Positions 30,365 to 48,195 of a DNA stretch of 64,000 nucleotides are shown piece by piece. The notes below the pieces were generated by a model. It was not told the DNA's origin. It did not search any database and saw only the letters and a list, made by a program, of their open reading frames with translations. The translations under genes were made by a program, and so were the position numbers. The DNA is from Negativicutes bacterium. GTDB lineage: Bacteria; Bacillota; Negativicutes; UBA1444. The stretch is taken from the NCBI GenBank assembly GCA_963665275.2, contig CAXXIN010000012.1, forward strand, positions 64,001-128,000, in the 5' to 3' direction. Within the stretch, counting starts at the first letter, position 1. Each line of letters starts with the position of its first letter.

Positions 30365-30401
30365 AAAAAAGCGCTTTCGGTTTTTCGCCGGAAGCGCTTT
30401 T
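30365..30401. terminator. Bidirectional terminator
   Basis: AAAAAAGCGCTTTCGG...CCGGAAGCGCTTTT between convergent genes. Confidence 0.75.
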
Positions 30402-30450: not shown

Positions 30451-31482
30451 TTATATCGTATTCTTTTTCGCGGCAGCCTCTCGTACCGATTCCCTATCGC
30501 ACCGGATAAAAGCCATCAGTTCTTTGGCCGTCTGCGAATACAGTTTCGTTTCCTCATAATCAGGTTCTCCGCCGGACAAATGCTGCATCAATACTCCGTC
30601 CGTCCCAAACCAGCGGGGTGCAAGTCCTCCGAAGAAAAAGCCGTTATGCCGCAGCAATTCGACCGCTTCGCCAATTGCTGGGCAAGCTGCGTTCAGCACT
30701 ACCTGCAAACTGACCACCTGCCGCCTGTCGGCCTCAGTCAGCAGTTCCTCCACCACCGTCGCCCAATCGCCGCCGATCGAGCTCACCGCTACTTTCCAGG
30801 TTTTCGCAAAGTCATAATACTTATCCTCTCGGACTGTATCGCCTGCCGCCGGCAAGGCTGCCGACGACGTCAGAAAAGTCCGGGGTCGTAGCGGCGCGGC
30901 CAGTCGTCGCAAATACTCATCATACCTGGCAGGCAAATACTCTGGCGCCACAGGGTCAGAAAGTTCCGAAAAATTCAGTACGCAGGATACTCGTGCCATG
31001 CCTGCCTTATTGCTTTTTCCGTCTTTAAAACTGGCGCCGTCCAATTGATCCAGCTCCAGCGCACAGTCGACAAATCCTGACTTTATTGCGCTGACTTGGG
31101 TGAAATAATGACAGCAGACCGCTTCGCTGAAAATCCCGTCATTGCCAGACATTCTACACATTGTCGGATCAAAATAAAAGCACGCCAATTCCAATGACAC
31201 AGCAGACTGGGCATAAGCCGGATCAACCAACATATTTCCGGCTTCCCACAGCCGGAAGTTAGGGGCTGACTTGAAGAAAGAAATGTAACCTGCGGGATGC
31301 CCCTCGGCAGTCAACGCCAAAGCGGCCGTCAACTTTTCAGCTTGAATATCCCGCCACAACACGTCAGGTTGATACACGTCCTTGACGGGAAAGTCCTCAC
31401 CATACAGCGCACGAAAAACAGCGCCCACATGGTGTGCATTGTTTTTCCCTACCGCAACAATTTGAAACATTTTTTCCAACAT
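30451..31482 (-). CDS. GNAT-like (tandem acyltransferase-fold) protein
   Basis: FRALYGEDFPVKDVYQP, EAGNMLVDPAY, EAVCCH, GFFFGGLAPRWF; homologous to aa 1-335 of the ligase at 44063-46648. Confidence 0.65.
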   Translation of the reverse strand: MLEKMFQIVAVGKNNAHHVGAVFRALYGEDFPVKDVYQPDVLWRDIQAEKLTAALALTAEGHPAGYISFFKSAPNFRLWEAGNMLVDPAYAQSAVSLELACFYFDPTMCRMSGNDGIFSEAVCCHYFTQVSAIKSGFVDCALELDQLDGASFKDGKSNKAGMARVSCVLNFSELSDPVAPEYLPARYDEYLRRLAAPLRPRTFLTSSAALPAAGDTVREDKYYDFAKTWKVAVSSIGGDWATVVEELLTEADRRQVVSLQVVLNAACPAIGEAVELLRHNGFFFGGLAPRWFGTDGVLMQHLSGGEPDYEETKLYSQTAKELMAFIRCDRESVREAAAKKNTI

Positions 31483-31510
31483 TGGTCTTACCCCTTTTCT
31501 TCCGCGACTA

Positions 31511-31753
31511 TTATTTTGCGATTCGTTTATCCAGATAGGCCACTGCATATGCGATAGTCGTCATTTCTTTTACATCTTCCTGTGGAATCGTTATCGCAAA
31601 GGTTTCTTCCGCCATTACCAGAAGTTCGGTGTAATCAAGCGAATCCAGTTTGAGGTTCTCCACCAGCAAAGCTTCCGGTTTCAAATCCGCCTCTGTGATA
31701 TTTTTCTTTTTTAGTTTCAAAATGATTGCCTTTACTTTTTCCAATGTTGTCAT
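31511..31753 (-). CDS. Acyl carrier protein
   Basis: 80 aa; LKLDSLDYTEL phosphopantetheine Ser motif; EETFAITIP. Confidence 0.88.
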   Translation of the reverse strand: MTTLEKVKAIILKLKKKNITEADLKPEALLVENLKLDSLDYTELLVMAEETFAITIPQEDVKEMTTIAYAVAYLDKRIAK

Positions 31754-31880
31754 GTTCATCCATCCTTTCATTTTTAGCTTGTCTTTTTTCATGAACTTTA
31801 TCCGGAATAATTTCTGCAACCTATGGCATTCCCCCTTTAAATTGAAAACCAAATTAACTCCTTGCCGGAATTGGCAGAAG

Positions 31881-32870
31881 TCAAATCCAACGCATAATGA
31901 TGGACCCCCAGGCTAGTCCTCCGCCAAATCCGGTCAGCGCAATCACATCGCCGGACTCAATCCGTCCGGTTTCCAACGCCTCGAAAAGAGCTATTGGAAT
32001 GGTGGCGGATGATGTATTTCCGTACTTCTCCACATTGACCATAAATTTTTCCATCGGTAAGTCCATGCGCCGGGCGGCAGCTTCAATAATCCGACGGTTT
32101 GCCTGGTGCGGGATGATCAGTTTCAGATCTTCCCTGCGCAAATTCGCCAGCGTTAATGCCTGATCAGTGACTTCCGGCAACATTTTCATCGCAAATTTGA
32201 AAACCTCCGGCCCGTTCATCTGTATCTTATTCATTTTGTCCGCTATCACTTCCGCCGTCGCCGGCTTCCGCGACCCGCCTGCCGGAACCATCATAAAGTT
32301 GGCCCCAGACCCATCCGCGCCGAGCTTCGCCGACAATATGCCATAGCCGGAAGGAACCTGACGCAATACCACCGCACCGGCCCCATCTCCGATAAGCATG
32401 CAGGTATCCTTATCCGACCAATTAATTACCCGGGACACCGCCTCGGTTCCAATCACCAACACCGTCCGGGAAAATTCATTGGCAATAAACTGGGCGCCGA
32501 CTGTCAGTGCATACACAAACCCCGAACAAACTGCAGTCAGGTCAAACGCCGGAATATTTTTGATTCCCAAACGCTCCTGAATGATACAGGCAGTCGACGG
32601 GAACTGCATATCCGGGGTTGAGGTGGAAACGATGATCAGATCCACTTCGTCCGGAGACACTCCCGCCCGGGCCAACGCCCGCTGTGCGGCAATAACGCCC
32701 AGATCGGAGGCTGCCTGCGAGGGCGCGGCGATATGGCGCTCCCTGATCCCCGACATGGATTCGATCCATTCTTCTGTGGCATCTATCATCCCTGCCAACT
32801 CAGCATTGGTCAATACTTTTTCCGGCGCATACATCCCAACGCCTATGATCCCGGCACTAATCTCAGACAT
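31881..32870 (-). CDS. fabH: Beta-ketoacyl-ACP synthase III (copy 2)
   Basis: AVCSGF, PHQAN, GNTSSA: intact Cys-His-Asn triad. Confidence 0.93.
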   Translation of the reverse strand: MSEISAGIIGVGMYAPEKVLTNAELAGMIDATEEWIESMSGIRERHIAAPSQAASDLGVIAAQRALARAGVSPDEVDLIIVSTSTPDMQFPSTACIIQERLGIKNIPAFDLTAVCSGFVYALTVGAQFIANEFSRTVLVIGTEAVSRVINWSDKDTCMLIGDGAGAVVLRQVPSGYGILSAKLGADGSGANFMMVPAGGSRKPATAEVIADKMNKIQMNGPEVFKFAMKMLPEVTDQALTLANLRREDLKLIIPHQANRRIIEAAARRMDLPMEKFMVNVEKYGNTSSATIPIALFEALETGRIESGDVIALTGFGGGLAWGSIIMRWI

Positions 32871-32903
32871 GTTAATTCTCCCCCTCTTTCCAAGACAATC
32901 GAG

Positions 32904-33899
32904 TCAAATCCACCGCATCACAATCGATCCCCAGGTCAAGCCTGCGCCAAATCCGGTTAACACTACCACGTCACCCGATTTTATCCGACCGCTCTCCAAT
33001 GCCTCATGCATCGCAATCGGAATGGAAGCCGAAGAAGTATTGCCATAGCGATCCAAATTCACCATAAACTTTTCCATAGGCAAGTCAAGACGTCGGGCCG
33101 CCGCCTCAATGATTCGAATATTGGCCTGGTGCGGAACAATCAGGTCGATATCATCTTTGCGCAAACCAGCAAGCGCCAGTGCCTGTTCCGTAACTTCCGG
33201 CAACATCTTCATGGCAAATTTAAATACTTCCGGCCCATCCATATGGAGTTTATTTCGGTTGGCTTCGATCAACTCCGGTGTCACAGGCAGCCGTGAACCA
33301 CCCGCCGGCAGCTGCAGATGTTTGCCGCCGGCGCCATCCGAGCCAATCTTCATCGACAAAATTCCGCTACCCTGCGCAGTCGGCTGCAACGCAACAGCAC
33401 CCGCTCCGTCCGCCAACAATATGCAGGTCTCGCGATCCGTCCAATTCGTCACTTTCGACAAAACTTCGGTCCCAATAACCAATACGGTCCGGCAAAAATC
33501 ATTCGCAATAAATTGCGCCGCAATCGTGAGTGCGTAAATGAAACCCGTGCAACCCGCCGTCACATCGAAGGCCGGTATATTTTTGATGCCCAAACGATCC
33601 TGAATGATGCAGGCTGTCGAGGGAAACTGCATGTCAGCCGTCGCTGTCGCGACGATGATCAACCCCACTTCATCTGCAGAAACACCGGCCTGCGCCAACG
33701 CCCGCTGCGCCGCTATCACGCCTAGGTCAGAAGCCGCCTGTGAATCTTCTGCTATTCGTCGTTCCTTGATCCCGGTACGTTCCTGAATCCATTCATCACT
33801 GGTGTCGACCATCTTTGCAATTTCATCGTTCGTCAGCACTTTATCAGGCAGACACACTCCAATTCCGACGATTCCTGCTTTGACTCTTTTGTTTATCAT
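32904..33899 (-). CDS. fabH: Beta-ketoacyl-ACP synthase III (copy 1)
   Basis: AGCTGF, PHQAN, GNTSSA; GGAGGA RBS before ATG 33899. Confidence 0.93.
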   Translation of the reverse strand: MINKRVKAGIVGIGVCLPDKVLTNDEIAKMVDTSDEWIQERTGIKERRIAEDSQAASDLGVIAAQRALAQAGVSADEVGLIIVATATADMQFPSTACIIQDRLGIKNIPAFDVTAGCTGFIYALTIAAQFIANDFCRTVLVIGTEVLSKVTNWTDRETCILLADGAGAVALQPTAQGSGILSMKIGSDGAGGKHLQLPAGGSRLPVTPELIEANRNKLHMDGPEVFKFAMKMLPEVTEQALALAGLRKDDIDLIVPHQANIRIIEAAARRLDLPMEKFMVNLDRYGNTSSASIPIAMHEALESGRIKSGDVVVLTGFGAGLTWGSIVMRWI

Positions 33900-34006
33900 T
33901 CCGATATCCTCCACCAACAAACTTCACTTATCTTCGATAAAATCTTCTAATATATATTTTTTTGTTCTAGCTATTACCCTGCGGTTTTTCAGGATGGTGA
34001 TCGACT

Positions 34007-35944
34007 TTATTCATTCTCGCAATTGGGTCCAAAATAGCGCAGCGCAAGCATCGTAATATCGTCGGACTGTTCCGCCCCTGCGGTGAACCGCGCCAGTTCT
34101 TCGGTCATTCCATTCACCAGTCCGACACAATCCTGTTGCCGTAATCTGGATAAGGTCTCTTGGGTCCGATCATTGCCGAATAAGCGATTTTCTTTATCCA
34201 TCGCTTCATTGACTCCGTCCGTGTAAAGATACAGCGAATCGCCAGCCTGCAACACCAGCTCCGCCTCATCGAAGCTCATATCCTCCATAGCTCCGGCCAG
34301 GGTTCCCTTGGTGCGGGGCAAAAAGTTCGGTTCCCCTGCCGCCTCCGTTAAAAACGGCAGATTGTGTCCGCCGTTGGCCCAACGGAATTTTCCTGTCGGC
34401 AGATGCACCACCCCGCAGAATAACGTCACGAACATGTTGGCATCATTGTTGCGGGCCAGTTCATTGTTGACCCGCACCAGCACTTTCCCTGGCGAGCGTT
34501 CCTCCTGTACGAAAGCGCGCAAGAATGTCCGCGTAACCGCCATGAACAGAGCCGCCGCAATTCCCTTGCCGGAGACATCCCCGATGACGATCCATAAATG
34601 GTCTGAATCAGGCATCATAAAATCATAGAAATCGCCACCCACTTCACGGGCCGGCGTCATCATCGCGTGAAGATCAAAGTCCTTTCGTGCAGGGAACGGC
34701 GGGAACGTTTTGGGTACCAGTTCCATCTGAATGCTCTGCGCGATTCGAAGCTCGCTTTCGATCCGTTCTTTGGCTGTAGCCGCATCCTGCAGCAACACAA
34801 TATGTTTTTCCAACTCATCACGCATGGCCGCAAAAGAATTTGCCAGATTCGCCACTTCATCCTGCCCTGGAATCTGCGGCAGCGGAGCATTCAGGTCTCC
34901 TCCAGCCAGCGCCCGTGTGGCGTCGGCCAATTTACGCAGCGGCCCGGTAATGGAGCGGGAAATCAACAGAATCACCGGCAACAGGAACAGAAAGCCGACG
35001 AACCCGATAGCGCTTTCCTTACGACTAAGTTCAGCGACTTTCGCCATCACTTCCGCCTCCGGAAAAAAAATGCCGATAGACCAACCGGTTGATTGAATGG
35101 GACGATACATCAGCCACCCTTCCTGCCCGGAAAAGATACTCCCGGTAGCAACGAACCCACTCCGCCCCTGGACCATCTCACGTCCGAGACTTCGCAGCTG
35201 GCTATTATGCTGCTCTTCCGCCTGGCTGAAAATGTTTTCCTTCAGGATCAGCTCTCGATTGGGGTGAGTGATAAAGGTACCGTTTTTCGAAAGCAGAAAT
35301 GCATAACCGCCTTTGCCGAGAGGCAATGAATCCAGCAAATCAGACAGCCATTCCAAAGAAATATCACTGGCAACCACGCCTCGGAAAACACCCGCACTAT
35401 CGCGAATCGGCGAAGAGTAAGTGACCATGAGCGTGTTCCCTCTCGACTCCGCCCGGTAGGGTTCACTCCAACCCGCCTGCTTCATCATCTGCGGAATTGA
35501 GTACCAGTCCTGAACAAAATAGGGCGTTGCCTGTTTCCCGCGATCAGCCTGCACCAACTGGTTCCAGGAACGGAAAACATAAGGCGATGTATAGGCTTCG
35601 TTATAACCGAAGGCCCCCGGTTCCAAAGCCACAGAGGCGCCATAAATCTCCTCATTGTCCCGAACCAGCCGCTCCAGCAAAGCGTAAACTGTATCCTGAC
35701 GAGACGGCGCCTGCAATTCCATCCGGCCATCCATGCCACTGACTATTTTTCGCACCGCCACTTCAATCAGTTCGATCCGAGCAGTCGTCGCACGGGCCAG
35801 TTGTTCAGCCTTTGCTTCCTGTTCCTGCTCCAGGATCTGACGCGCCACGACATATCCGTAGCCGATCACAGCGGCTAAAGTGAGAACGGACGCCAACAAA
35901 ACCGACACCGACAGCCGCCAGGTAATACTCAATTTACGGAACAT
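34007..35944 (-). CDS. Membrane SpoIIE/RsbU-type PP2C phosphatase with Cache and HAMP domains
   Basis: TM-Cache (WYSIP...WSEPY)-TM-HAMP (DEVANLANSF)-PP2C (VGGDFYD, GDVSGKG, YTDGVNEA, SDDIT). Confidence 0.92.
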   Translation of the reverse strand: MFRKLSITWRLSVSVLLASVLTLAAVIGYGYVVARQILEQEQEAKAEQLARATTARIELIEVAVRKIVSGMDGRMELQAPSRQDTVYALLERLVRDNEEIYGASVALEPGAFGYNEAYTSPYVFRSWNQLVQADRGKQATPYFVQDWYSIPQMMKQAGWSEPYRAESRGNTLMVTYSSPIRDSAGVFRGVVASDISLEWLSDLLDSLPLGKGGYAFLLSKNGTFITHPNRELILKENIFSQAEEQHNSQLRSLGREMVQGRSGFVATGSIFSGQEGWLMYRPIQSTGWSIGIFFPEAEVMAKVAELSRKESAIGFVGFLFLLPVILLISRSITGPLRKLADATRALAGGDLNAPLPQIPGQDEVANLANSFAAMRDELEKHIVLLQDAATAKERIESELRIAQSIQMELVPKTFPPFPARKDFDLHAMMTPAREVGGDFYDFMMPDSDHLWIVIGDVSGKGIAAALFMAVTRTFLRAFVQEERSPGKVLVRVNNELARNNDANMFVTLFCGVVHLPTGKFRWANGGHNLPFLTEAAGEPNFLPRTKGTLAGAMEDMSFDEAELVLQAGDSLYLYTDGVNEAMDKENRLFGNDRTQETLSRLRQQDCVGLVNGMTEELARFTAGAEQSDDITMLALRYFGPNCENE

Positions 35945-36941
35945 AGCCAAGCCCTCCGCCGGTGAAATCATCATAGAATGGCGACTGTTGCAGCAACCCC
36001 TGTTGACGCATCACCTGAACAGTTCTGGAGTAGTCTTGCCGGGATAACCTGCCGAAAGCCCATGAATCCTGTGCCCCCGGAATCACGCTGGTCAGGATCT
36101 TTTCCAGCATCCATTTCATGTGGGGCCGATTCGTCGGCACATTATCTTTGATAACATACTGCATCACAATATCGAGCGCCTCGTCCGGATTCTCAGCCGC
36201 ATACTTCCACCCGGCCAACGAAGCTTCGCGGAAATTGCGCGCCTGTTCAGGATTTTTCGTCAAGGCATCCCTGGTTGTATAAATCCCGTCCTCCGGAAAG
36301 CCAAACTCATCATCCCGCAGAAAGAACAGTTTCAGTTCGTCCATATCGATGCCTGTTTGATAAGCCATGTGAACTTCGTTGTAGTTCATTGCTGAACATG
36401 CCACGACTCCCTGCTGCAGGAAAAGGTTCACAGAGTAGTACTGGGGTACAACCTCCGGGCGGGCATTCATTGCTTGCAACCAGGCGGCATACGGTGCGCG
36501 GAAGTCTCCGCCCCAGACACTGATTTTTTTGCCGGACAAATCGGACAGCGTAGAAATATTGTCCTTCTTCCAAGTCATCAACACTAAATTCGAGGAGTTA
36601 ACGACCTGGGCCAGGTTCACCAGCGGGATATCCTTTTCACTGCGAGCGAGAGCCGCGCTCAGCCATAACGAAGCAAAATCCACTTCGCCCCGGATGAGAA
36701 AATCCGCAGCATCCAGTCCCGGACCGCCGGGGACGATGGAAACATCAAGTCCCTTATCCTTATAAAAACCTTTTTCCAGAGCGACGTAATACCCTGCGAA
36801 CTGAGCCTGATGACTCCATTGCAGCATGAGACGTACCGGTTGAAGCTCAGTTGCCTGCACCGGAAGCATCCATAACAGCACCAGTATCAAAACAACCAGA
36901 GAAACCGGCAACCGCCCGGATGTTCGACTATTTATCACCAT
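35934..36941 (-). CDS. NMT1/THI5-like periplasmic substrate-binding protein
   Basis: Signal peptide; LQWSHQAQFAGYYVALEKGFY; no permease or ATPase adjacent. Confidence 0.88.
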   Translation of the reverse strand: MVINSRTSGRLPVSLVVLILVLLWMLPVQATELQPVRLMLQWSHQAQFAGYYVALEKGFYKDKGLDVSIVPGGPGLDAADFLIRGEVDFASLWLSAALARSEKDIPLVNLAQVVNSSNLVLMTWKKDNISTLSDLSGKKISVWGGDFRAPYAAWLQAMNARPEVVPQYYSVNLFLQQGVVACSAMNYNEVHMAYQTGIDMDELKLFFLRDDEFGFPEDGIYTTRDALTKNPEQARNFREASLAGWKYAAENPDEALDIVMQYVIKDNVPTNRPHMKWMLEKILTSVIPGAQDSWAFGRLSRQDYSRTVQVMRQQGLLQQSPFYDDFTGGGLGYVP

Positions 36942-37344
36942 AACGCACAGCCAATGACAGGATGTTGCGGTCCCCGCTGCGACTGTAGTGCACCTCGTCC
37001 AGCATCCTGCGAATCAGAAAAATACCCAGACCGCCAACTTCACGGTTTTCCAGCTCCGACTTGATATCCGGCGCATCCGCCGCCAATGGATCGAAAGGAA
37101 CGCCGACATCAGTCAACTCAATGCGAACAACCTCCGCTTCCCGCGAAATCCGGATCGTAACTTCGCCGGGCGGAATTTCATAGGCATAGCTGCAAATATT
37201 GACAGCCGCTTCTTCCACCGCCAGTTCCAAATGCATTACCCGTTTTGGGTGAACGCCCATTGCGGTTGCAGTTTCTGAAACGAATCCCACAATATCGGGT
37301 ATCGTTTCCATAGTGGCCGCAAAAGTTTTTTCCACACCGTCCAT
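36928..37344 (-). CDS. RsbW/SpoIIAB-like anti-sigma factor Ser kinase
   Basis: LAVEEAAVNICSYAY, DVGVPFDP, GGLGIFLI. Confidence 0.9.
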   Translation of the reverse strand: MDGVEKTFAATMETIPDIVGFVSETATAMGVHPKRVMHLELAVEEAAVNICSYAYEIPPGEVTIRISREAEVVRIELTDVGVPFDPLAADAPDIKSELENREVGGLGIFLIRRMLDEVHYSRSGDRNILSLAVRYGDK

Positions 37345-37682
37345 TATTTGTCCTCCCCGGCAGTTGCCTGCTCTACATCAGCATATACCGTCAGAATATT
37401 GTCGAAACCGGATATCGAGATAACCTCCTCAACCAAACCGGATAGGGAACAGAGGGATAGACTACCGTTAAGGGGTTTCACTTTTTTGGTAGCGGCAAGA
37501 ATACTGCGGAGACCGGCGCTGCTGATATACTCCAGGCCGCCGAAATCGAGTACGAGTCGGTGATGTCCCTCGGCAATCCAGTCCAGACAAGCTTTTTCAA
37601 ACTGCGCTGCATTTCCGATATCAAGGCGCCCCTCCAAACGAATCACCCAAAAGCCGTTTTTCTCTTTTGTGCTTAAATTCAT
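37344..37682 (-). CDS. STAS anti-sigma factor antagonist (RsbV/SpoIIAA-like)
   Basis: GRLD, LDFGGLEYISSAGLR with phospho-acceptor Ser; TAATG coupling to rsbW-like gene. Confidence 0.92.
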   Translation of the reverse strand: MNLSTKEKNGFWVIRLEGRLDIGNAAQFEKACLDWIAEGHHRLVLDFGGLEYISSAGLRSILAATKKVKPLNGSLSLCSLSGLVEEVISISGFDNILTVYADVEQATAGEDK

Positions 37683-37723
37683 GTTGTTCAACCCTCCATA
37701 TTTTATATTCATGCAAGCTCATA

Positions 37724-38842
37724 TTATGGCAAAATGTTTTTCAATGCCGCAACCAATTTCTCCATGACCGGCAACATTCCGAGCGTCACCCTAATGTGGT
37801 TGGGAAAACGGAATCCCGTCATCGACCGCACCATGATTCCCTGGCGCATCAACTTTCGATACGCCAGCGTATCGCTCATCGGCAACCGAATCACCATATA
37901 GTTCCCTTCGCCGGAAATATACGGCAATCCCATTCGGGTCAGTTCCGTTTCGAGAAAACGCCTTGCTTCCCCCACCATCCGGCGGGTCCGTGCAACATGC
38001 TCTTCTGCGTCAAGAAGGGACCCCAGAGCGGCCTGCTGTGCTATGGAATTGACCGAGTACACCACGCAGGTTCGCCGGATCACATCCACCAATTTTTCTT
38101 GCCCGGCTAAAAAGCCAATTCGCAGCGCCGCCAGCGCAAACATTTTCGAAAAAGTCCGAAACACCAATAAATTCGGGTATTCCCGCATCAGCTCCATTCC
38201 GTTGGGAAAATCCGGTGCATCAACAAATTCGCCATAGGCCTCATCAACCACCACGATCTGTCGCCCATCCACCTGGTCGAGAAACTTGCGCAACCGTTCT
38301 TCGTTCCAATAAGTTCCGGTCGGATTGTTCGGATTGCAGATAAAAATGATTTTGGTGCGCGCATCGACCGCCGCCAGCATCGCCGCTTCATCATAGCCAT
38401 AATCAGCTGCCAGTGGAACGAGCCGGGCTTCATAGCCGGAAAACTCCGCCACCCACTCATACACTGCGAACGTCTTGTCGGTGGTGATGATATTATCGCC
38501 TACCTGACAAAAAGCATTGATTACAAACGCAATGACTTCGTTGGCGCCATTGCCGACAATAAAAGAGTCCGGCGAATGTCCGAACTTCTCCGCCAGCTTC
38601 CGCCGCAAATGATAGGCGTCGCCGCTCGGATAGATCGCTGCCTGAACCGGGTCCATCGCCCGGATGGCTTCCAAAGCTTTGGGCGATGGGCCGAGAGCAT
38701 TTTCATTATTGTTCAGACGATAAAGAACCGGGCAGCCGAACATCTGTCGCAGCACATCATCGGGCTTATTGGGAATATACGGCTCGATTTTTTGAATGTG
38801 ACGGGGAACCAGCGTCTCCAGCGGCGGAAATGGATGATTCAC
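37724..38842 (-). CDS. HisC/CobD-like PLP enzyme (class II aminotransferase fold)
   Basis: LNNNENALGP, GNGANE, CNPNNPTG, DEAY, RTFSK. Confidence 0.85.
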   Translation of the reverse strand: MNHPFPPLETLVPRHIQKIEPYIPNKPDDVLRQMFGCPVLYRLNNNENALGPSPKALEAIRAMDPVQAAIYPSGDAYHLRRKLAEKFGHSPDSFIVGNGANEVIAFVINAFCQVGDNIITTDKTFAVYEWVAEFSGYEARLVPLAADYGYDEAAMLAAVDARTKIIFICNPNNPTGTYWNEERLRKFLDQVDGRQIVVVDEAYGEFVDAPDFPNGMELMREYPNLLVFRTFSKMFALAALRIGFLAGQEKLVDVIRRTCVVYSVNSIAQQAALGSLLDAEEHVARTRRMVGEARRFLETELTRMGLPYISGEGNYMVIRLPMSDTLAYRKLMRQGIMVRSMTGFRFPNHIRVTLGMLPVMEKLVAALKNILP

Positions 38843-40110
38843 AGGGTTTCACCCTCCCGAAGCATCAACACCAGAATATCCCCTCGGCCTCCCCACGGCA
38901 AAATCCACTGGGGAACAAAACCGGCTGCCGACAAAGCCGGGCTGAGCATCGCCTGTTCCGCTACGCCTGTATCCAGATGAAACTGAATTTCCGTGAACCC
39001 TTCCTGCCTCAGTGCCCGAACATGCTCCAGCAATACCGGAGCCGCGTCCTGTCCTACCCAGATGGCTGTCAGCGTCACCCGCCCAACCGGCCGGTTCATC
39101 TGTGCAGCAAAGGCCGAGCAGGGAGACAGACTTTCCCCCTGATGTTCAACAGGATGCGCCGCTCGCGGCAAATAGAGCTGCTGATAGCATTCTTGTAAAA
39201 AAGCAGCAAACTGCGGGTGTGCATAGGCCGTCGTCCCATTGTCTTCTTCCAGTTGCCTGTATAGCACCGATCCATCCTGCGCAAGCTGTTCGAAGTATCC
39301 CGGCGGCATATCCGCTGTCGGATCAAGCACCACCATGCAAACAGCAGAAGTTCGGGCCATTTTTCGCAAACAGGCTTCCACCGCAAGAATCGACAAATGC
39401 GATGGATCATAAAAAGCATAAGGACCAAAAGCCTCCACCAGTTTTTGTCCCCGCCGCCAGAGCATCCCTGCGCCGACATTGCCTTTGCCGTCCGCCAGCA
39501 ATACAGCGCCATACTCACCACAGGCAACCATGTCGGCGACTTTTCCGGGAAAAGTGAAGAAGAAAGGCGCTTGCGTTCCATATTTCGCCGTTACGCGAGA
39601 GGCAAATTGTTTCAGCAGTTCCGTTTCCGGCTCAACTTCCTGGAAATTTCCTGACGATGCCAACTCCGGCAGGCGCTCCTGCAAAGAGGGATACCGCTTG
39701 TTTTTGACAAAACAAATTTTCATTTCGCCGTTTTCTGCTGATATCCCCAATTGATCGACAGTCCGCGCCGCGAGCAGCAGGCCCATCTCATCCAGGGATT
39801 GCTCGTCGTCCGAAGAAACCGTCGAGGTAATGTTGAAGGCGCCGACCGGCAACGCATGCTGAGGAAACCGGCAGACGACTTCCGCATAATACCCGCCATT
39901 GCGGCACAGCAGCTTCAACCGCTGATCCGCGGCGATGCGGGCTGCCAAAAACGAATACACCTCTTCCACCGCCAACGTCAAATGCATGGCTTCGGCCCGT
40001 CCCATGTCGAAAGCCTGCACCGACTGTTCAACACAACCTGTTGCGATCGGCAAAAATTCCGCTTGCAGAGGCAGGTTCAACTCGATATTTTGTCGATTTG
40101 GCACCTTCAC
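38839..40110 (-). CDS. Hybrid protein: degenerate RsbW-like N-terminal domain plus GNAT-like C-terminal region
   Basis: LTLAVEEVYSFL...MGLLLAARTVD mirrors RsbW without the N-box Asn; the C-terminus (GFVPQWILPW) parallels the cluster's GNAT-like proteins. Confidence 0.55.
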   Translation of the reverse strand: MKVPNRQNIELNLPLQAEFLPIATGCVEQSVQAFDMGRAEAMHLTLAVEEVYSFLAARIAADQRLKLLCRNGGYYAEVVCRFPQHALPVGAFNITSTVSSDDEQSLDEMGLLLAARTVDQLGISAENGEMKICFVKNKRYPSLQERLPELASSGNFQEVEPETELLKQFASRVTAKYGTQAPFFFTFPGKVADMVACGEYGAVLLADGKGNVGAGMLWRRGQKLVEAFGPYAFYDPSHLSILAVEACLRKMARTSAVCMVVLDPTADMPPGYFEQLAQDGSVLYRQLEEDNGTTAYAHPQFAAFLQECYQQLYLPRAAHPVEHQGESLSPCSAFAAQMNRPVGRVTLTAIWVGQDAAPVLLEHVRALRQEGFTEIQFHLDTGVAEQAMLSPALSAAGFVPQWILPWGGRGDILVLMLREGETL

Positions 40111-40120
40111 ATCCCTCCGT

Positions 40121-40963
40121 TCATTTTAGTCCAGCCTGCGCGAGCCGCAACAACAGATTCCCGGCAACGCATCTCCGGTAATCGGCGCTTGCCCGAAGGT
40201 CATCAATGGGACAAACGGCAGCGGCCGCGAGCTGCCCTGCGTCGCGCACGCACTCCACCGACAGGACTCGCCCCAATAGATACTCCTCCACCGCCGGCGC
40301 TATTGTCACAGTCGGACCGACGCTACCCCAGGCCAGCTTCACAGCTGTTATCGTTCCGTCGTCGTCGGTCGTCAGGCTGGCCGCCATACTCGCCACCGAG
40401 ATCGCCATTGCCTTACGTTTTCCCACCTTGTAATACACGGAGCGCATCGCGGCGGCGGGCCTGGGCACTCTGACAGCGGTTACCATTTCGCCGGCTTGCA
40501 ATGTTGTTTTGCCCGGACCGGTGATAAAATCAGCCACCGGTTGACGGCGGGATCCGGTCGCGCTGCACACTTCAACCGCGGCGTCCAAAACATAGAGCGG
40601 CGGCAAGGTATCGCCAGCCGGCGAGGCCGTGCAAACATTGCCGATCAAGGTTGCGCTATGGCGAACCGGCGGGGATGCAAGTTCTGCTATTGCTTGATGC
40701 AAAGCAGTCAGCTCCTGCTTAATGGTCTCGCATTCCAGCAGGCTTTGGAGAGTTACGGCAGCACCGATAACAAATTCCTCTTCCAAAATGTCAAGTCTCT
40801 GCAGTTCCTCAATGCGTTCGATACAAAAAACTGCCGACGGTTTCTGCCCGTTGCGGCGCAATCTGACCAGCAGATCAGTCCCTCCCGCCATTATGAGTCC
40901 GTCAGGACTGTCCGCTCTCATTGTATTCAATTCTTCCAGCGTTCGGGGAAACAGCACTTCCAT
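40121..40963 (-). CDS. Xanthine dehydrogenase family FAD-binding subunit
   Basis: MAGGTDL, ASPPVRHSATLIGN, ASPAGD, PIDDLRASADYR. Confidence 0.92.
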   Translation of the reverse strand: MEVLFPRTLEELNTMRADSPDGLIMAGGTDLLVRLRRNGQKPSAVFCIERIEELQRLDILEEEFVIGAAVTLQSLLECETIKQELTALHQAIAELASPPVRHSATLIGNVCTASPAGDTLPPLYVLDAAVEVCSATGSRRQPVADFITGPGKTTLQAGEMVTAVRVPRPAAAMRSVYYKVGKRKAMAISVASMAASLTTDDDGTITAVKLAWGSVGPTVTIAPAVEEYLLGRVLSVECVRDAGQLAAAAVCPIDDLRASADYRRCVAGNLLLRLAQAGLK

Positions 40964-41436
40964 CAGCTCATCCCCCCATTCAGGATCCGAGCTGCAGCCA
41001 TAACAGCGTCCACGATTTTTTGGTAGCCGGTGCAGCGGCACAAGTTACCGCTCAATTCCCGGCGAACTTCTTCGCGCGTCGGATCAGGAATGCGGCGCAG
41101 CAAATCCAATGTGGCCAAGATCATTCCCGGAGTGCAAAAGCCGCACTGCACGGCGCCGTGGTCGACAAAAGCCTGTTGAACGACATGAAGTTCTCCATTT
41201 GAAGCAAGTCCTTCGATCGTCAGAAGGGTCCGGCCCTCGAGTTGCGCTGCCAGCATCAGGCACGACAGCCGACTTTCCCCATCGACCAAAATCGTGCAGG
41301 CGCCACATTCTCCCGAGCCGCAGCATTCTTTCGTACCGCCCAGCCCCAGATCCTCACGCAGCAAATCAACTACCCGCCGGTCGGGCGCCGTTTCCACACT
41401 CATGGATTTTCCGTTTAAAATAAAATTCACCTTCAC
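40963..41436 (-). CDS. Xanthine dehydrogenase family 2x[2Fe-2S] subunit
   Basis: CGSGECGACT...SC, QCGFCTPG, NLCRCTGY. Confidence 0.93.
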   Translation of the reverse strand: MKVNFILNGKSMSVETAPDRRVVDLLREDLGLGGTKECCGSGECGACTILVDGESRLSCLMLAAQLEGRTLLTIEGLASNGELHVVQQAFVDHGAVQCGFCTPGMILATLDLLRRIPDPTREEVRRELSGNLCRCTGYQKIVDAVMAAARILNGGMS

Positions 41437-43778
41437 GGCCTACCCTCCTGCCCTGTCTGACGCAATGCCGCCAATACGTTTTCCGCATTCATCGTTTCGG
41501 CGGCAATTCGGAATCCCGCAGCGTCCGCAATCGCATTGGCGACAGCCGGCAACACCCCGTCAATTCCGATTTCACCGACGCCCTTCATCCCAAAGGGACC
41601 TTCCTTTTCATTTGGGGTGACAGGCACCGTCACCATATCCGGAACATCCAGCGCCGTCGGCAAAATATAGGTGCTGAAATCATTCGTCAGAATCCGTCCG
41701 TCCGAAACGGCAAATTCCTCAAACAGTGCGTAACCCAGCCCCTGGGCTGCGCCGCCCTGAACCTGCTGTTCATAGACCTGCGGGTTCAGGACCCGCCCTG
41801 CATCCACACAATTCAACATATCGACGGCCGTAGTTTCACCTGTCAGGGTATCGATTTCCACCGCGACAAGTTGTACCCCATAGGTTATAACCCGGTGAGG
41901 AAATCCGTGCATGCGCAAATTTTCGCCACTGGCTATCGGTTGATCATTTACCGGGCAAGTATAGCTGTAAGTAGTCGTTCGTTCCGACGCATCCATCACC
42001 GAAGCAACCAGCGCCAACGGAACACTGCGCCCGGAAGGCAGATGCCGCGCCAGGCCCGGCAGCAAAATAATCTCTTCTATGGAAACACTATGAAGCAACT
42101 GGAAAGAAATCATCAAGGCCGCCCGGGCGCGAATCCTGTCTAGCAATAATTCCGCCGCTCCAATCATCGCATTGCCATAGGTGAAGGTTGTGCGACTGGC
42201 AGATGAGGACGCCGAAGGCAAGGTTCGGGACGTATCCGGCATAACGAGCTCCATCGTTTTTTGGGGCTGACAGAGGATATGCCCTGCGATCTGCGCATAG
42301 GTGCTGGCATTGCCCTGTCCCATATCGGACACCCCTACATAGACGCGAATCTTGCCATCGGTCAGGAGCTCCAGTTTGGCATTGGCATAGTCGGCAATAG
42401 CCGGACCAAACCCGACGCTATGATAAACCGCCGCCACCCCAACGCCTCTGCGCTTGAAGTCCGGCGCGCCAGCGCACCATTTTTTCCGGCGCCGCCACAA
42501 AGGATGCCGCTCTGTTTCATCCAGACATCCCAGTAATCCTGTCGTCTGTGTCAGCAATACGCCGGTCGGTGAAGTATCCCCGCGCGAAACCGCATTTTTT
42601 CGCCGCAGTTCGAGCGGGTCAAACCCTCCCGCCTTAGCCAGTTCATCGATCGCCTGCTCCATGGCAGCAGCCGCCTGCGGCACACCAAATCCCCGAAATC
42701 CGCCTGAAACCGGATTATTGGTATACGCGACCGAACCACGGACCAGCACATTGGGGATCCGGTAAGGTCCACCCGCATGTTCCATGGCCAAGGCAAATAC
42801 TTCGCTGCCAAGAGAAGCATAAGCGCCAGTATCAAACAAAAGCTTACAGGATAAAGCCTGCAGAACCCCGTCCTGATCACAGCCCACCGTGTACTCCGCA
42901 CGCATCGGATGCCGTTTTACTCCCGTCAGTATACTCTCTTCACGCGAATACCACAGTTTCACCGGACGTCCTCCGCTGTGCATCGCCGCCAGCGCCAGGA
43001 ATCCCTGAACGGTAACGCCGTCTTTGCCGCCGAAGCCTCCACCGAGGCAGGGTGCGACAATATGAATCTTTGCCGGTGACAAGCCTAAAGCCTCCGCCAG
43101 TTCCAACCGGTCGCGAAAAGGGGTCTGGGTGGAAACCGTCATCGACAGGGTTCCATCCTCTTCCATCCAGGCAACTCCGGCCTGTGTCTCCAGAAAGGCA
43201 TGTTCCTGCCAGCCGGTCCGAATCTTCACCGTGGCCTGAAACGTACATTTCCCCAGATTCGCCGCTCCGTCGCCGCAAACGATCTCACTTTGGATCAGCA
43301 CATTCCCGGCCGGACGGGTTGGGTGCAAAATCGGCGCACCCTCTTCCAGCGCCGCTTCGGGATCGAACACAGGCGGCAACGGCTCATACTCAACCCGGAT
43401 AGCCGCCAAAGCCGCCGCGAGGGTCTCCTTGCCCTCCGCCACCACCAAAGCCACGGCATCGCCATAATGGCGCACCCGTTCATCGGCCAAAATCGGTTGA
43501 TCCTTTTCGAAAATCCCCAGGCGATTTTTTCCCTTGATATCGCGGTGCGTTTGAACAGACACGACTCCTGCGAGGGCAGTCGCTCCTGTTGTATCAATCG
43601 CCAGAATTCGCGCATGAGCATGTTCGGACCGCTTGACCCCCGCCCACAGAAGGCCCTCCGGGTACAGATCCGCTGCAAAAACTTCAGCACCCGTCACCTT
43701 TGTCAACGCATCCAGTCGCGGAGCATTGCAGCCGATTTCCCACACCTGAGCGGTCTTCCTCTGCCTATTTTCCGACAT
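41433..43778 (-). CDS. Xanthine dehydrogenase family molybdopterin-binding subunit
   Basis: EHAFLE, GGGFGGK, FRGFG, MGQG, QVQGG, KGVGE. Confidence 0.92.
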   Translation of the reverse strand: MSENRQRKTAQVWEIGCNAPRLDALTKVTGAEVFAADLYPEGLLWAGVKRSEHAHARILAIDTTGATALAGVVSVQTHRDIKGKNRLGIFEKDQPILADERVRHYGDAVALVVAEGKETLAAALAAIRVEYEPLPPVFDPEAALEEGAPILHPTRPAGNVLIQSEIVCGDGAANLGKCTFQATVKIRTGWQEHAFLETQAGVAWMEEDGTLSMTVSTQTPFRDRLELAEALGLSPAKIHIVAPCLGGGFGGKDGVTVQGFLALAAMHSGGRPVKLWYSREESILTGVKRHPMRAEYTVGCDQDGVLQALSCKLLFDTGAYASLGSEVFALAMEHAGGPYRIPNVLVRGSVAYTNNPVSGGFRGFGVPQAAAAMEQAIDELAKAGGFDPLELRRKNAVSRGDTSPTGVLLTQTTGLLGCLDETERHPLWRRRKKWCAGAPDFKRRGVGVAAVYHSVGFGPAIADYANAKLELLTDGKIRVYVGVSDMGQGNASTYAQIAGHILCQPQKTMELVMPDTSRTLPSASSSASRTTFTYGNAMIGAAELLLDRIRARAALMISFQLLHSVSIEEIILLPGLARHLPSGRSVPLALVASVMDASERTTTYSYTCPVNDQPIASGENLRMHGFPHRVITYGVQLVAVEIDTLTGETTAVDMLNCVDAGRVLNPQVYEQQVQGGAAQGLGYALFEEFAVSDGRILTNDFSTYILPTALDVPDMVTVPVTPNEKEGPFGMKGVGEIGIDGVLPAVANAIADAAGFRIAAETMNAENVLAALRQTGQEGRP

Positions 43779-44010
43779 GTTGCTCCACATAATCGACCGC
43801 CGTCGCCAATGTCTTGAGTTTCATAACATCCGAACCGCGCAGAACAAAATCGAAAGTATCCTCCATATCCGCCAATATCCAGCTGAAAGCCAGCGAATCC
43901 ACTCCCATCGTTGCCAGTTCCTGCGCAGGGATAATTGTATCGGGGTTAACTCCTGATATCCGCTTGGCAATAATTTTACGCAACTCGCTCTCAATCTTTT
44001 GTCGTTCCAT
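43765..44010 (-). CDS. Acyl/peptidyl carrier protein
   Basis: 81 aa; MGVDSL Ser motif; MEDTFD. Confidence 0.82.
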   Translation of the reverse strand: MERQKIESELRKIIAKRISGVNPDTIIPAQELATMGVDSLAFSWILADMEDTFDFVLRGSDVMKLKTLATAVDYVEQHVGK

Positions 44011-44062
44011 CTTTAGAAAACCTCCCAACACTCCTATCAATTTGATCCCCAGACCAAGGCCA

Positions 44063-46648: not shown

Positions 46649-46663
46649 TTCGTTTCTACCCCT

Positions 46664-48055
46664 TTATCCTTGTTCTTGTGAAATGGCTGATTGCAAAGTT
46701 GTTAATTTTTCCGTTTCAATGCGTTGCCTGCTAGCCGACAGCAACCGCTGCAAGAGAAATGCGGCAAATAGAGCCGTTCCTGCGGTGGCTGCCGGATGAC
46801 TCCAATATACCCCGGTCTGTCCCCAATGCCCGGCAAACGCATTGGCCAAAGGAATCCGCAGGCAAATCACATACAAAAAGGCCATAACCATTATGTATAT
46901 AGGATGCTTGGTTCCCTGCGACATTCCGTTCACGGCGTATAACAGCGGTGAAAAAAGCATGGATATGCCGGATGCTTGCATAGCAATGCCGCCCAACAAT
47001 TGAAGTTCCGCCGTTGGGCGAAACAAGCCGATCAGTTCCTGTGGGAAAAAGAAAAACAGCGCCGCAAGCGGCGTGATGATTGCCCAGGCGACCCGAAGGA
47101 AAAAGTTCAATCCCTGGCGCACCCGGTTGTAATCAAGCCGTCCCAAATTGAATCCGGTAAAAGTAGCCAACGCATTACTCAGACCCATGACAGGCAACAT
47201 TACCATCATTTCCGAGCGGGACATCAAATTCCAGGCGCCGATTGCCCCCGGACCGAAGCGCGACAAAATCCCGTTCAACATTATCAAGGCAACAGGGCTG
47301 ACCAGGTAGGCTGCGGTCACGAACATTCCCTGTCCCAGAATCTGTCTCCACGCCCGCAGAAATCCTGGATAAGGAAAGAAAACCATTTTCTCAGCGAACA
47401 ATTCTCGCAGCTTGTGGCTGAGATAGATGGCGGAAACGCTTTGTCCAATCAGCGTTCCAACGGCGGCCCCAGTCACGCCCCAACCCAAAACAAAAATGAA
47501 CAGTGGATCGAGCGCCATATTCAGTAAATTTCCCCACAGCATCGCTTTCATCGGGGTCATCGTGTCGCCGCGCGAAGTAAACAACGCTTCAACCGTCATC
47601 ACATAGCCCATCACTGGAAACCCTGCAACCAGCCAGAATATATATCCGCTCCCCTGGTCGGCAATCGATGCGTCAGCGCCGATTCCCAAGTAAAACAAAC
47701 GGCACAGACTCGGAGCCATCAAGGGTAGAAACAATCCCATGAATAGGGTCATCAGCGGCAATACCGCCGAGGCCGTGCGGCGGGCGCCATCCTCGTCACC
47801 TTTGCCCCTGGCGTAGCTCATCAGAATCACGCTACCCATGGCAATCCCTTTGGCCATCGACAAAGCCAGATAGCTCAGCGGCAATGCCATCGATACGGCA
47901 GCCAGCGGGACTTCACCCAACCAGGACACAAAGATGGTTGATACGTATGAATAAAGATTTTGAAAAAAAAGAGACACCATCAGAGGAAGCGCCAAGCGCC
48001 CAAGCACATGGGACACTTTTCCCTGAGCCATATCTACTGCATGCGCCACGTCCAC
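46664..48055 (-). CDS. MATE family efflux transporter
   Basis: LALPLM, GDTMTPM, NMALDPLFIF, GVTGAAVGT; GGAGGAG RBS before GTG 48055. Confidence 0.9.
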   Translation of the reverse strand: MDVAHAVDMAQGKVSHVLGRLALPLMVSLFFQNLYSYVSTIFVSWLGEVPLAAVSMALPLSYLALSMAKGIAMGSVILMSYARGKGDEDGARRTASAVLPLMTLFMGLFLPLMAPSLCRLFYLGIGADASIADQGSGYIFWLVAGFPVMGYVMTVEALFTSRGDTMTPMKAMLWGNLLNMALDPLFIFVLGWGVTGAAVGTLIGQSVSAIYLSHKLRELFAEKMVFFPYPGFLRAWRQILGQGMFVTAAYLVSPVALIMLNGILSRFGPGAIGAWNLMSRSEMMVMLPVMGLSNALATFTGFNLGRLDYNRVRQGLNFFLRVAWAIITPLAALFFFFPQELIGLFRPTAELQLLGGIAMQASGISMLFSPLLYAVNGMSQGTKHPIYIMVMAFLYVICLRIPLANAFAGHWGQTGVYWSHPAATAGTALFAAFLLQRLLSASRQRIETEKLTTLQSAISQEQG

Positions 48056-48098
48056 TTCACGCTCCTCCGCTGTTAATTTCGCGCCGCTGTCGTTAATT

Positions 48099-48128: not shown

Positions 48129-48151
48129 TTTTCAAGCAGTTCCGGACAACA

Positions 48152-48195
48152 CAAAAGCAGAGCCGCAATGAACTCAAGGTTCATAGGGCTCTGCA
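48152..48195 (-). terminator. Terminator of the DASS-hydro-lyase operon
   Basis: Minus strand GCAGAGCC..ATGAAC-cttga-GTTCAT..GGCTCTGC-TTTTG. Confidence 0.7.

Follow-up and report, generated by a model that had tools for sequence, protein, structure and literature searches.

The window analyzed here, a stretch of 64,000 nucleotides from a Negativicutes bacterium (GenBank assembly GCA_963665275.2, contig CAXXIN010000012.1), carries on its minus strand a 16-gene operon in which, as an earlier note on this DNA had proposed, acyl-carrier enzymes, an exporter, a complete PP2C/STAS/RsbW module and an extracytoplasmic binding protein lie together. We see roughly an even chance that the enzymes of this operon form a pathway to a small nitrogen-containing metabolite, which is probably acylated and exported, and that the operon brings its own dedicated partner switch, by which the pathway is controlled post-translationally. 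Partner switching with an enzyme as output is itself known; what would be new here is that such a switch is hard-wired to a metabolic operon via a pseudokinase fusion. This fusion is a protein of 423 residues, designated unk423, whose N-terminal domain resembles the kinase RsbW and whose C-terminal part belongs with a family of tandem GNAT-like modules designated G2.

The open reading frame (ORF) list of the window contains 16 consecutive minus-strand ORFs from 48196 (likely start about 48059) to 30451, whose ends overlap or abut and are separated by about 130 nt at most. The gene order is MATE transporter, G2-ligase fusion, acyl carrier protein 1 (ACP1), the Mo, [2Fe-2S] and FAD subunits of a hydroxylase of the xanthine dehydrogenase (XDH) family, unk423, HisC-like aminotransferase, STAS, RsbW, NMT1, dCache-HAMP-PP2C, FabH copy 1, FabH copy 2, ACP2 and G2. 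These genes form a single operon, because they are co-oriented with overlapping or abutting ends, are enclosed by two hairpin terminators and by unrelated genes (upstream fumarase, DASS transporter and LysR, downstream an NHL protein and MerR), and keep their order in same-genus loci (5 of the 5 examined, far above chance). The hairpins were found where the earlier note had placed its terminators, at about 30380 and 48170, and every call in its list of domains was reproduced by Pfam and NCBIfam.

The mechanism that we propose is as follows. An extracytoplasmic ligand would be detected by two components, the NMT1-family binding protein, which is secreted, and the dCache domain on the periplasmic side of the membrane phosphatase; via the HAMP domain, the PP2C domain would dephosphorylate the STAS protein, which the intact RsbW kinase would re-phosphorylate. 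Unphosphorylated STAS would dock, by its phospho-serine loop, on the N-terminal RsbW-fold pseudokinase domain of unk423, and the docking would alter the activity of the G2 acyltransferase-like module of unk423 or of the translationally coupled HisC-like aminotransferase. A phosphate on the STAS serine would face the invariant Glu49 and Glu50 of unk423, and STAS would be released; the direction of this regulation is what we infer. The conserved chemistry would be provided by a HisC-type aminotransferase, a non-xanthine Mo-hydroxylase, G2 acyltransferases and a MATE or MFS transporter, and the acyl donors in this lineage by a ligase loading ACP1 and by two FabH enzymes acting on ACP2.

For the comparison across genomes, profile searches were made of all ORFs in 80 loci around unk423 homologues, taking one genome per species, and the locus counts below depend on our own ORF calling and iterated profiles. 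By title, these loci come from metagenome-assembled genomes (MAGs) of Negativicutes, from Syntrophomonas, Pelotomaculum, Dethiobacter, Formimonas, one contig binned as Methanoculleus and others, and from Desulfobacterota (Desulfomonile, Syntrophus, Smithella, Syntrophobacteraceae and Desulfobacteraceae). The HisC-like gene directly follows unk423 in 76 of the 80 loci; the XDH-family trio is present in 53, G2 in 48, and a transporter of the MFS_1 or MATE family likewise in 53 (a recurrent MFS_1 in 39, MATE in 14). Ligase, ACP and FabH occur in 16, 14 and 11 loci and are nearly confined to those of Negativicutes or Bacillota, FabH being present in none of the 30 non-Negativicutes loci with full flanks. 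The conserved core is, accordingly, unk423, the HisC-like aminotransferase, the three-subunit Mo-hydroxylase, the MATE/MFS transporter and G2, to which ligase, ACP and FabH are a lineage-specific add-on; it is this core, and not the ligase/ACP/FabH set that the earlier note had paired with the sensor, that is the sensor's conserved partner.

A STAS, RsbW or PP2C gene is found in 46 of the 80 loci, and such a switch gene lies at most 500 bp from a core gene in 38, two of which are self-overlap artefacts. The arrangements vary, including HisC-STAS, G2-STAS, XDH-STAS, RsbW-unk423, STAS-unk423, CachePP2C-unk423 and divergent pairs, and STAS or PP2C is present in 16 of the 30 loci from outside Negativicutes whose flanks extend for 9 kb or more in each direction. 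These counts are lower bounds, because many loci stop right after STAS. RsbW-specific counts were not used because the iterated RsbW profile also matches the N-terminal domain of unk423, and the number of "unk423" ORFs, 96 in the 80 loci, is affected likewise.

The phyletic survey covered 151 genomes of the window's class. unk423 is present in 25 of them, belonging to 7 of the 67 genera, and the Cache-HAMP-PP2C sensor has full-length orthologues, with E <= 1e-180 and an identity of 47% or more from end to end, in 22 of these 25 and in none of the 126 unk423-negative genomes, where the best match is partial in length (1.2e-90). In other words, the sensor orthologue is never seen in these genomes without the enzymes. 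In genus g44 the two halves are unlinked: the genome G128 has both an enzyme operon (G2-ACP-G2-FabH-MATE-ligase-ACP-XDH-unk423-HisC) and a sensor operon (STAS-RsbW-NMT1-CachePP2C), 3.7 Mb apart on one 4.36-Mb contig (0.6 Mb if circular). As for the co-occurrence of the halves in other genomes, which the earlier note had named as a check on its proposal, they occur together across phyla, in the phyletic pattern and even where unlinked, and the enzyme-sensor link is real. That an unrelated sensor operon came by chance to lie inside a metabolic gene cluster is conceivable inasmuch as switch modules are common and mobile and the halves occupy different places in genus g44. We consider this highly improbable and already contradicted by the recurrence of the linkage across phyla in rearranged forms, by the phyletic pattern and by the halves that are unlinked yet present; furthermore, the STAS proteins of unk423 loci, other phyla included, are mutual orthologues that are 31-74% identical to the STAS protein of the window.

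unk423 has no match in Pfam or NCBIfam, and its relatives comprise 351 representative clusters, nearly all of 420-450 residues; in the ESM Atlas it matches hypothetical clusters, some of them with HATPase_c_2 plus Acetyltransf_1. The guess that this protein is a hybrid of RsbW and GNAT is supported by its structure model (predicted local distance difference test, pLDDT, 93.8), in which residues 5-141 match SpoIIAB (1l0o_A, Z-score 16.5) and RsbW (Z 15.0), with a Foldseek E-value of 5e-8, and a GNAT fold lies within residues 153-290 (best match for residues 156-287, Z 13.2, root-mean-square deviation (rmsd) 2.5, 125 residues aligned). Homology to G2 extends over the C-terminal 260 residues (hhalign 91%, E 1e-6). 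We compared the kinase motifs of 73 unk423 N-domains with those of 29 stand-alone RsbW proteins from the same loci, that of the window included, at the positions that we take to be the N, G1 and G2 boxes of GHKL kinases (this G2 box is unrelated to the G2 family). The N-box Asn is kept in 29/29 stand-alone RsbW proteins and 0/73 unk423 domains, which have Tyr or Phe there; the G1-box Asp in 29/29 and 0/73; and the first Gly of the G2 box in 29/29 and 1/73. Judged by these motifs, the N-domain of unk423 is a pseudokinase that has lost its ATP-binding motifs, and what the family does conserve is an LA-EE helix (L46, A47, E49, E50) and a helix around A114 and R116. In a Syntrophobacterales MAG (locus L085, 8044 to about 9900, minus strand), a second unk423-like gene consisting of RsbW-like and G2 parts stands divergent from the first, showing that the pseudokinase-G2 fusion has paralogues.

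These conserved helices coincide with a predicted contact surface. The STAS protein carries a YISSAGLR loop in which Y52, S54, S55, A56, G57, L58 and R59 are invariant among 25 orthologues, and S54/S55 mark the predicted phospho-serine loop. When unk423 residues 1-150 were modelled in complex with STAS in three runs, the interface score (ipSAE) was 0.82, 0.81 and 0.82, whereas none of three controls exceeded 0.15; the runs shared at least 96% of their contacts, and the pLDDT of the partner was 91. Of 80 solved complexes, 58 attained the mark applied, as did 2 of 110 mismatched pairs, a calibration that is rough because our own alignments were used. In the model, the STAS loop 51-59 and helix 82-91 face unk423 residues 42-53 and 106-117. 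All six conserved unk423 residues named above fall within this modelled interface, as do Y52, S54, S55, A56, L58 and R59 of STAS, the invariant G57 being absent from the listed contacts; the conserved residues of the N-domain therefore appear to make up a STAS-binding face and not an ATP site. This conserved-surface argument is independent of the confidence score of the model, from which the interface itself is taken. Since conserved surface and complex model agree, docking of STAS onto the unk423 N-domain is the most economical reading, and the two together support binding.

Of the components of a partner switch of the RsbU/V/W type, the PP2C phosphatase, the STAS protein with its conserved serine and the GHKL kinase with its motifs are all present in the operon, and the fourth, a target sigma factor, was not found. 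Pfam and NCBIfam searches give no sigma factor in the operon or its flanks, and in the genome, which is 92.6% complete, none of the three matches to the SigB/F/G-subfamily model TIGR02980 (best 134 and 108 bits) exceeds the cut-off of 234. A tblastn search of the genome gives no second RsbW and just one further STAS gene, which stands alone at 4798-5118 of locus L109 (G000:C18:114000-124000) with no adjoining RsbW, PP2C or sigma gene by NCBIfam. Because there is neither a sigma factor in the cluster nor one of SigB/F/G type over the cut-off, and because the N-domain of unk423 is kinase-dead and docks STAS in the model, this RsbW-like pseudokinase domain is more likely the output of the switch than the alternative sigma factor that the earlier note had expected. 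We think it rather unlikely that the system works in the classical manner, i.e., that RsbW is the anti-sigma factor of a sigma factor encoded elsewhere, which STAS would free on activation of the phosphatase for transcription of the operon or a wider regulon, unk423 being then merely an enzyme with a decayed kinase-like domain. The intact ATP-binding motifs of RsbW beside PP2C and STAS, the incompleteness of the genome and the sigma-70-family gene that precedes unk423 in 5 of the 80 loci would all suit such an arrangement; it leaves unexplained, besides the missing sigma factor, why switch genes adjoin unk423 in several arrangements and why the conserved residues of the dead kinase domain lie on the modelled STAS face.

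The operon contains three G2 modules: one fused to the ligase, one fused to the RsbW-like domain in unk423, and one free. The free G2 aligns with the N-terminal part of the ligase fusion at 33% identity (E 8e-51) and has 183 relatives at E <= 0.001, from Negativicutes, Syntrophorhabdaceae, Desulfobulbus and "Proteobacteria" MAGs; among the 120 of these that were listed, every source name is "hypothetical" or a generic domain label. The G2 profile found a single chance-level match among the sequences of the Protein Data Bank (E 0.073), and an ESM Atlas search with the G2 homologue P0056 as query found "hypothetical" or GNAT clusters only. Acetyltransf_1 matches the fusion protein weakly (16.7 vs 20.7 bits) and neither G2 nor unk423. 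The structure model of G2 (pLDDT 89.8) agrees with the suggestion that this terminal protein is GNAT-like: residues 4-174 have a GNAT fold (Z 11.8, rmsd 2.6, 149 residues aligned), followed by a second, C-terminal domain at about 180-342, to which no fold was assigned, the fold-match lists being filled by the N-domain, and for which we claim no new fold. In GNATs, the fourth and fifth strands flank the acyl-thioester. Both of these strands have invariant residues in G2, among them Trp78-Glu79 in the fourth and, where the fifth ends, Cys122-x-His124; the ligase-fused module keeps the Cys-x-His (EAVCNH).

G2 is multi-copy in the window's genus, with 3-6 matches per genome (relatives G001-G012 and G023). 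The loci L017-L023, which lie apart from unk423 and from any switch genes, hold further G2-ligase fusions with their own ACP (plus MATE in L022) and a FabH-G2-ACP trio (L018). Because G2-ligase-ACP(-MATE) and FabH-G2-ACP are thus found as free modules in relatives, we suggest that G2 transfers carrier-bound acyl groups.

Concerning the other enzymes, the hydroxylase belongs to the XDH/aldehyde-oxidoreductase superfamily, with Mo, two [2Fe-2S] and FAD domains all above the Pfam cut-offs. Its Mo subunit stays below every equivalog cut-off (best pucD, 562.8 vs 783.65; XdhA, 480.4 vs 780), and its closest matches among solved structures are nicotinate dehydrogenase and 4-hydroxybenzoyl-CoA reductase, which have similar scores and neither of which is decisive. 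In the alignment with rat XDH, the catalytic Glu of GVGE is kept, Asp replaces the Glu after GGGFGGK, and Ala replaces the Arg of "IMERAL"; the latter two are presumably the purine-binding residues of XDH (bovine Glu802 and Arg880). With the catalytic Glu kept, these two residues replaced and the scores below the cut-offs, the enzyme is, judged by its sequence, a hydroxylase other than canonical xanthine dehydrogenase. Xanthine was accordingly rejected as its substrate, on the equivalog scores and on the two presumed substrate-binding positions. The HisC-like gene, which overlaps that of unk423 by 4 nt, has a higher-scoring counterpart elsewhere in the genome (329.9 vs 298.7, TIGR01141), likewise outside any his operon, so that the family score does not fix the substrate of the operon copy.

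The two FabH copies are 69% identical to each other and 52.6% (copy 1) and 49% (copy 2) identical to the genome's other FabH on contig C9, which is taken to be the housekeeping copy. Both contain the Cys (TAGCTGF / TAVCSGF), His (PHQAN) and Asn (YGNTSSA) that we take to be the triad of FabH, a beta-ketoacyl-ACP synthase III (KAS III), and by sequence both are canonical FabH enzymes. The earlier note had likened them to the ketosynthases of photopyrone and dialkylresorcinol signals, and this likeness is not upheld: they score 430 and 399 bits against the FabH cut-off of 292, and identity as DarB/StlD or a pyrone-forming ketosynthase was rejected with 50.7 and 48.4 bits against 550 (DarB, NF053539) and 62.7 and 55 against 450 (NF005293). 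The operon has no polyketide synthase (PKS) or non-ribosomal peptide synthetase (NRPS) modules, and none of its 16 proteins matches Autoind_synth, LuxR-type or similar domains of autoinducer synthases or receptors in Pfam or NCBIfam.

Several points weigh against the mechanism that we propose. No switch gene was found in 34 of the 80 loci, about a dozen of which have full flanks (including L037, L065, L072, L078, L081, L083, L084 and L092), and 3 of the 25 unk423-positive genomes of the class lack the sensor orthologue; the pathway can therefore run without this switch. The 22 genomes with both halves fall into 5 genera and are related, so the counts overstate independence. unk423 does not have the Cys-x-His that is invariant in G2, and its G2-like module may for this reason be catalytically inactive or serve as an adaptor. 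The CoA pyrophosphate-binding motif of GNATs is Q/R-x-x-G-x-G/A, and this usual motif is not visible by eye after beta-4 in either G2 or unk423. Because SpoIIAA-SpoIIAB and RsbV-RsbW complexes have already been solved (1th8, 6m36), the STAS-unk423 model may have reached its score through likeness to these known complexes and does not demonstrate binding. The intact RsbW could hold an unlinked sigma factor or another target, with which the aforementioned sigma-70-family genes would be in line. Finally, a catabolic role is possible, chiefly for lineages without ACP, FabH and ligase or with a neighboring gene of the adenosine-deaminase family, which is found in some Desulfobacterota loci and would fit the catabolism of a purine-like compound.

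Were the operon catabolic or detoxifying, some N-heterocyclic or aromatic amino compound of the environment would be sensed, taken up or expelled, hydroxylated, transaminated and acylated, and the switch would turn the enzymes on when the substrate is present. XDH-family enzymes are mostly catabolic, the two closest structures among them; some loci contain XdhC/MobA maturation genes in addition to the adenosine-deaminase-family gene, and the core cluster of Desulfobacterota does without ACP, FabH and ligase. Enzymes without the sensor occur and the sensor without the enzymes never, a pattern that a substrate sensor fits as well as a product sensor. We nevertheless hold this explanation to be improbable, because two dedicated ACPs, two FabH enzymes, an acyl ligase and a MATE exporter are parts for building and exporting, MATE proteins as a family being efflux pumps, and because no ring-opening, amidohydrolase or beta-oxidation genes are among the recurring neighbor families. 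The same parts, together with the occurrence of G2-ligase-ACP(-MATE) and FabH-G2-ACP as free-standing modules in relatives, give the operon its biosynthetic look. We infer biosynthesis rather than breakdown, and as the product an exported N-acylated amino compound.

The sensor gives one hint as to its ligand. The NMT1 gene overlaps the sensor gene and has no adjoining ABC permease or ATPase gene. In the first PDC module of the dCache domain, at about residues 150-160, the sensor reads VQDWY, at the position where amino-acid-sensing dCache domains presumably carry an R-x-W-Y carboxylate-binding motif, and this replacement hints at a ligand other than a plain amino acid. A further possibility is a self-sensing circuit of the autoinducer type, in which the acylated nitrogen compound would be exported by MATE or MFS, its outside level would be read by NMT1 and the dCache phosphatase, and STAS would feed back on the pathway's own pseudokinase-acyltransferase; this would be a quorum-sensing-like loop acting on enzyme activity and not on transcription, widespread in syntrophic and fermenting anaerobes. 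We regard such a loop as doubtful, its support being limited to the co-inheritance of maker, exporter and outside sensor.

The features of the operon are collected in Table 1. The MATE ORF is open from 48196, and because homologue alignments start at its residues 46-65 and GGAGGA stands upstream, the start is most likely the GTG at about 48059, close to the 48055 that had been given as the beginning of the cluster. The gene end of ACP1 overlaps the start of the Mo-subunit gene. The FAD-subunit ORF is open from 41041, and its likely ATG overlaps the stop of the [2Fe-2S]-subunit gene. The ACP2 ORF is open from 31852, and its homologues align from residues 25-33. The ligase part of the fusion matches AMP-binding (288.9 bits) and AMP-binding_C in Pfam.

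Table 1. Genes and terminators of the operon, in order of transcription (positions in the window).
Feature	Position	Strand	Basis and remarks
Upstream terminator hairpin + U-run	~48147..48194	-	Closes the fumarate-hydratase genes; marks the operon's upstream edge
MATE-family efflux transporter	46664..48059	-	Pfam MatE 117 bits; TIGR00797 161.8 vs cut-off 147.4
G2-ligase fusion, 861 aa	44063..46648	-	G2 module (tandem GNAT-like) 1-335; acyl-AMP/acyl-CoA-type ligase 336-861
ACP1, DSL motif	43765..44010	-	PP-binding 31.6 bits; homologues align from residues 6-11
Mo subunit, XDH-family hydroxylase	41433..43790	-	MoCoBD_1/2, Ald_Xan_dh_C (Pfam)
[2Fe-2S] subunit	40963..41436	-	Fer2_2 117 bits, Fer2
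FAD subunit	40121..40963	-	FAD_binding_5 143.9 bits, CO_deh_flav_C 85.5 bits, matching from residue 28
unk423, 423 aa	38839..40110	-	Predicted RsbW/SpoIIAB-fold pseudokinase domain 5-141 + G2-like GNAT module 153-423
HisC-family pyridoxal-phosphate aminotransferase	37724..38842	-	Aminotran_1_2 187.7 bits; TIGR01141 298.7 vs cut-off 276.55
STAS, anti-sigma-factor-antagonist type	37344..37712	-	STAS 77.9 bits; TIGR00377 85.5 vs cut-off 53.45
RsbW-type serine kinase	36928..37344	-	HATPase_c_2 87 bits; N, G1, G2 boxes intact
NMT1/THI5-family solute-binding protein	35934..36941	-	NMT1 130.6 bits; N-terminal signal or anchor sequence
Membrane sensor phosphatase, dCache-HAMP-PP2C (SpoIIE)	34007..35974	-	SpoIIE 172.5 (residues 457-647), MCP-like_PDC_1 90.2, dCache_1 79.2, HAMP 60 bits
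FabH (beta-ketoacyl-ACP synthase III) copy 1	32904..33920	-	TIGR00747 429.8 vs cut-off 292.1
FabH copy 2	31881..32870	-	TIGR00747 399.4 vs cut-off 292.1
ACP2, DSL motif	31511..31750	-	PP-binding 28 bits; TIGR00517 57 bits, under 70.45 cut-off
Stand-alone G2, 343 aa from likely start (ORF 365 aa)	30451..31482	-	No Pfam/NCBIfam match
Downstream bidirectional terminator hairpin	30367..30401	.	15-bp stem, A-run + U-run; operon's downstream edge

The upstream hairpin has a fold energy of -24.9 kcal/mol (z -4.0), equalled by none of 200 shuffles, and is directly followed by UUUUGUGUUG. The downstream hairpin (-18.8 kcal/mol, z -3.15) is common to the operon and to the convergent gene at 29411-30325 (plus strand) for an NHL-repeat beta-propeller protein, beyond which lies a MerR-family regulator (28451-28924, minus strand). 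On the other side, 48218-52238 is occupied by an ordinary dicarboxylate unit, which the upstream hairpin closes; it consists of the genes for the beta and alpha subunits of a class I fumarate hydratase, for a DASS-family (Na_sulph_symp) transporter and, in divergent orientation, for a LysR regulator. A search of Rfam over 29500-49000 (E <= 1) gave no match to a riboswitch or other RNA, and the anti-phage defence models of PADLOC gave none for the 8 operon proteins tested.

Some of the compared loci have additional genes. In the same-genus locus L013 (G010:C46:164500-184499, about 2900-4500), the stretch between FabH2/ACP2 and the terminal G2 holds as insertions another ligase-like gene and a third ACP, and the acyl-supply part of the operon is thus modular. 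Recurrent neighbors of the core in Desulfobacterota are a histidine kinase binding cyclic nucleotide monophosphates (25 loci), an adenylate/guanylate cyclase directly upstream of unk423 (6 loci), the adenosine-deaminase-family gene (4 loci), XdhC (8 loci) and a MobA-like Mo-cofactor gene (9 loci); examples of these extra neighbors are L058:951-2153, L080:6681-7688, L080:11849-12802, L084:7697-8959 and L100:15010-15627. The contig titled as a Methanoculleus sp. MAG (L037, 10001-19000) has unk423-HisC-G2-ligase-ACP and a convergent XDH trio, which represents either gene transfer into a methanogenic archaeon or a binning error.

Textbooks present partner switches as regulators of sigma factors; to our knowledge, few are known to act on enzymes, SiaABCD being the clearest case. 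Here, Negativicutes, Desulfobacterota, Syntrophomonadaceae and other anaerobes, which are typical of digesters and sediments, inherit a switch with an outside-facing sensor along with a metabolic pathway and a transporter, and the pathway seems to carry its own docking domain for the switch in the form of a kinase-dead RsbW fused to an acyltransferase. If true, this would be a new wiring of extracellular sensing to metabolism that bypasses transcription, would give functions to two "hypothetical" families, unk423 (351 representative clusters) and G2 (183 matches), and would provide syntrophic communities, about whose signalling little is known, with a candidate for a chemical signal or secreted metabolite. 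The earlier note knew of no characterized system with this architecture, and in searches of the main texts of the open-access literature no description of it or of a kinase-dead RsbW fused to GNAT was found either.

We next compare the operon with known systems. The RsbU/RsbV/RsbW and SpoIIE/SpoIIAA/SpoIIAB systems resemble it in their parts, namely a PP2C phosphatase, a GHKL serine kinase and a STAS protein whose serine is conserved, and in fold both the RsbW of the operon and the N-domain of unk423 match SpoIIAB and RsbW; Chlamydia RsbU, which is reported to have a periplasmic sensor domain, is likewise a transmembrane sensor phosphatase. The present system differs from these in that no target sigma factor was found, that a second, kinase-dead RsbW-like domain is fused to an enzyme, and that the module lies within a metabolic cluster and is inherited along with it. 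LuxP/LuxQ, a periplasmic binding protein with a membrane autoinducer sensor, is comparable because here too a gene for a secreted binding protein overlaps one for a membrane sensor without ABC genes; the difference is that LuxP/LuxQ feeds a histidine kinase phosphorelay, whereas a PP2C phosphatase and a partner switch are used here, for a ligand that need not be self-made.

On the side of the enzymes, pathways that depend on FabH-type enzymes or on a ligase and ACP include those of DarB (dialkylresorcinols), PpyS (photopyrones) and PqsA/D/BC (alkylquinolones). The present operon is like them in combining an acyl-AMP ligase, dedicated ACPs, KAS III enzymes and an exporter. It also recalls CurA, whose GNAT loading domain (GNAT-L, 2ree) matches unk423 with Z 11.0, in placing a GNAT-fold module beside carrier proteins. 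It differs in that both FabH enzymes are canonical, with the low DarB scores given above, that PKS/NRPS modules are absent, and that G2 has its own invariant Glu and Cys-x-His and no named relatives.

The closest precedent for an output from STAS to an enzyme would, by analogy, be the SiaABCD system of Pseudomonas aeruginosa. Membership in this system was rejected, because the best named NCBIfam match of the sensor's phosphatase part is SiaA (NF038263) with 83.9 bits, far under the cut-off of 700 and so no orthologue, and because the operon has no GGDEF domain. The SiaB-SiaC complex (6kko) is, nevertheless, among the fold matches of the unk423 N-domain (Z 11.3). Both systems have a membrane PP2C phosphatase with HAMP, an RsbW-like kinase and a STAS-like protein, and this last protein acts in the Sia system, and would act here, on an enzyme instead of freeing a sigma factor. 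Unphosphorylated STAS-like SiaC is reported to bind and activate the enzyme SiaD (PMC8457831, PMC7647112). The differences lie at both ends of the switch: the output of the Sia system is the diguanylate cyclase SiaD, whereas the proposed output here is a pseudokinase-acyltransferase fusion, in which the docking site would be a dead copy of the kinase itself, and the sensor here has a dCache domain and, as its partner, an NMT1 binding protein.

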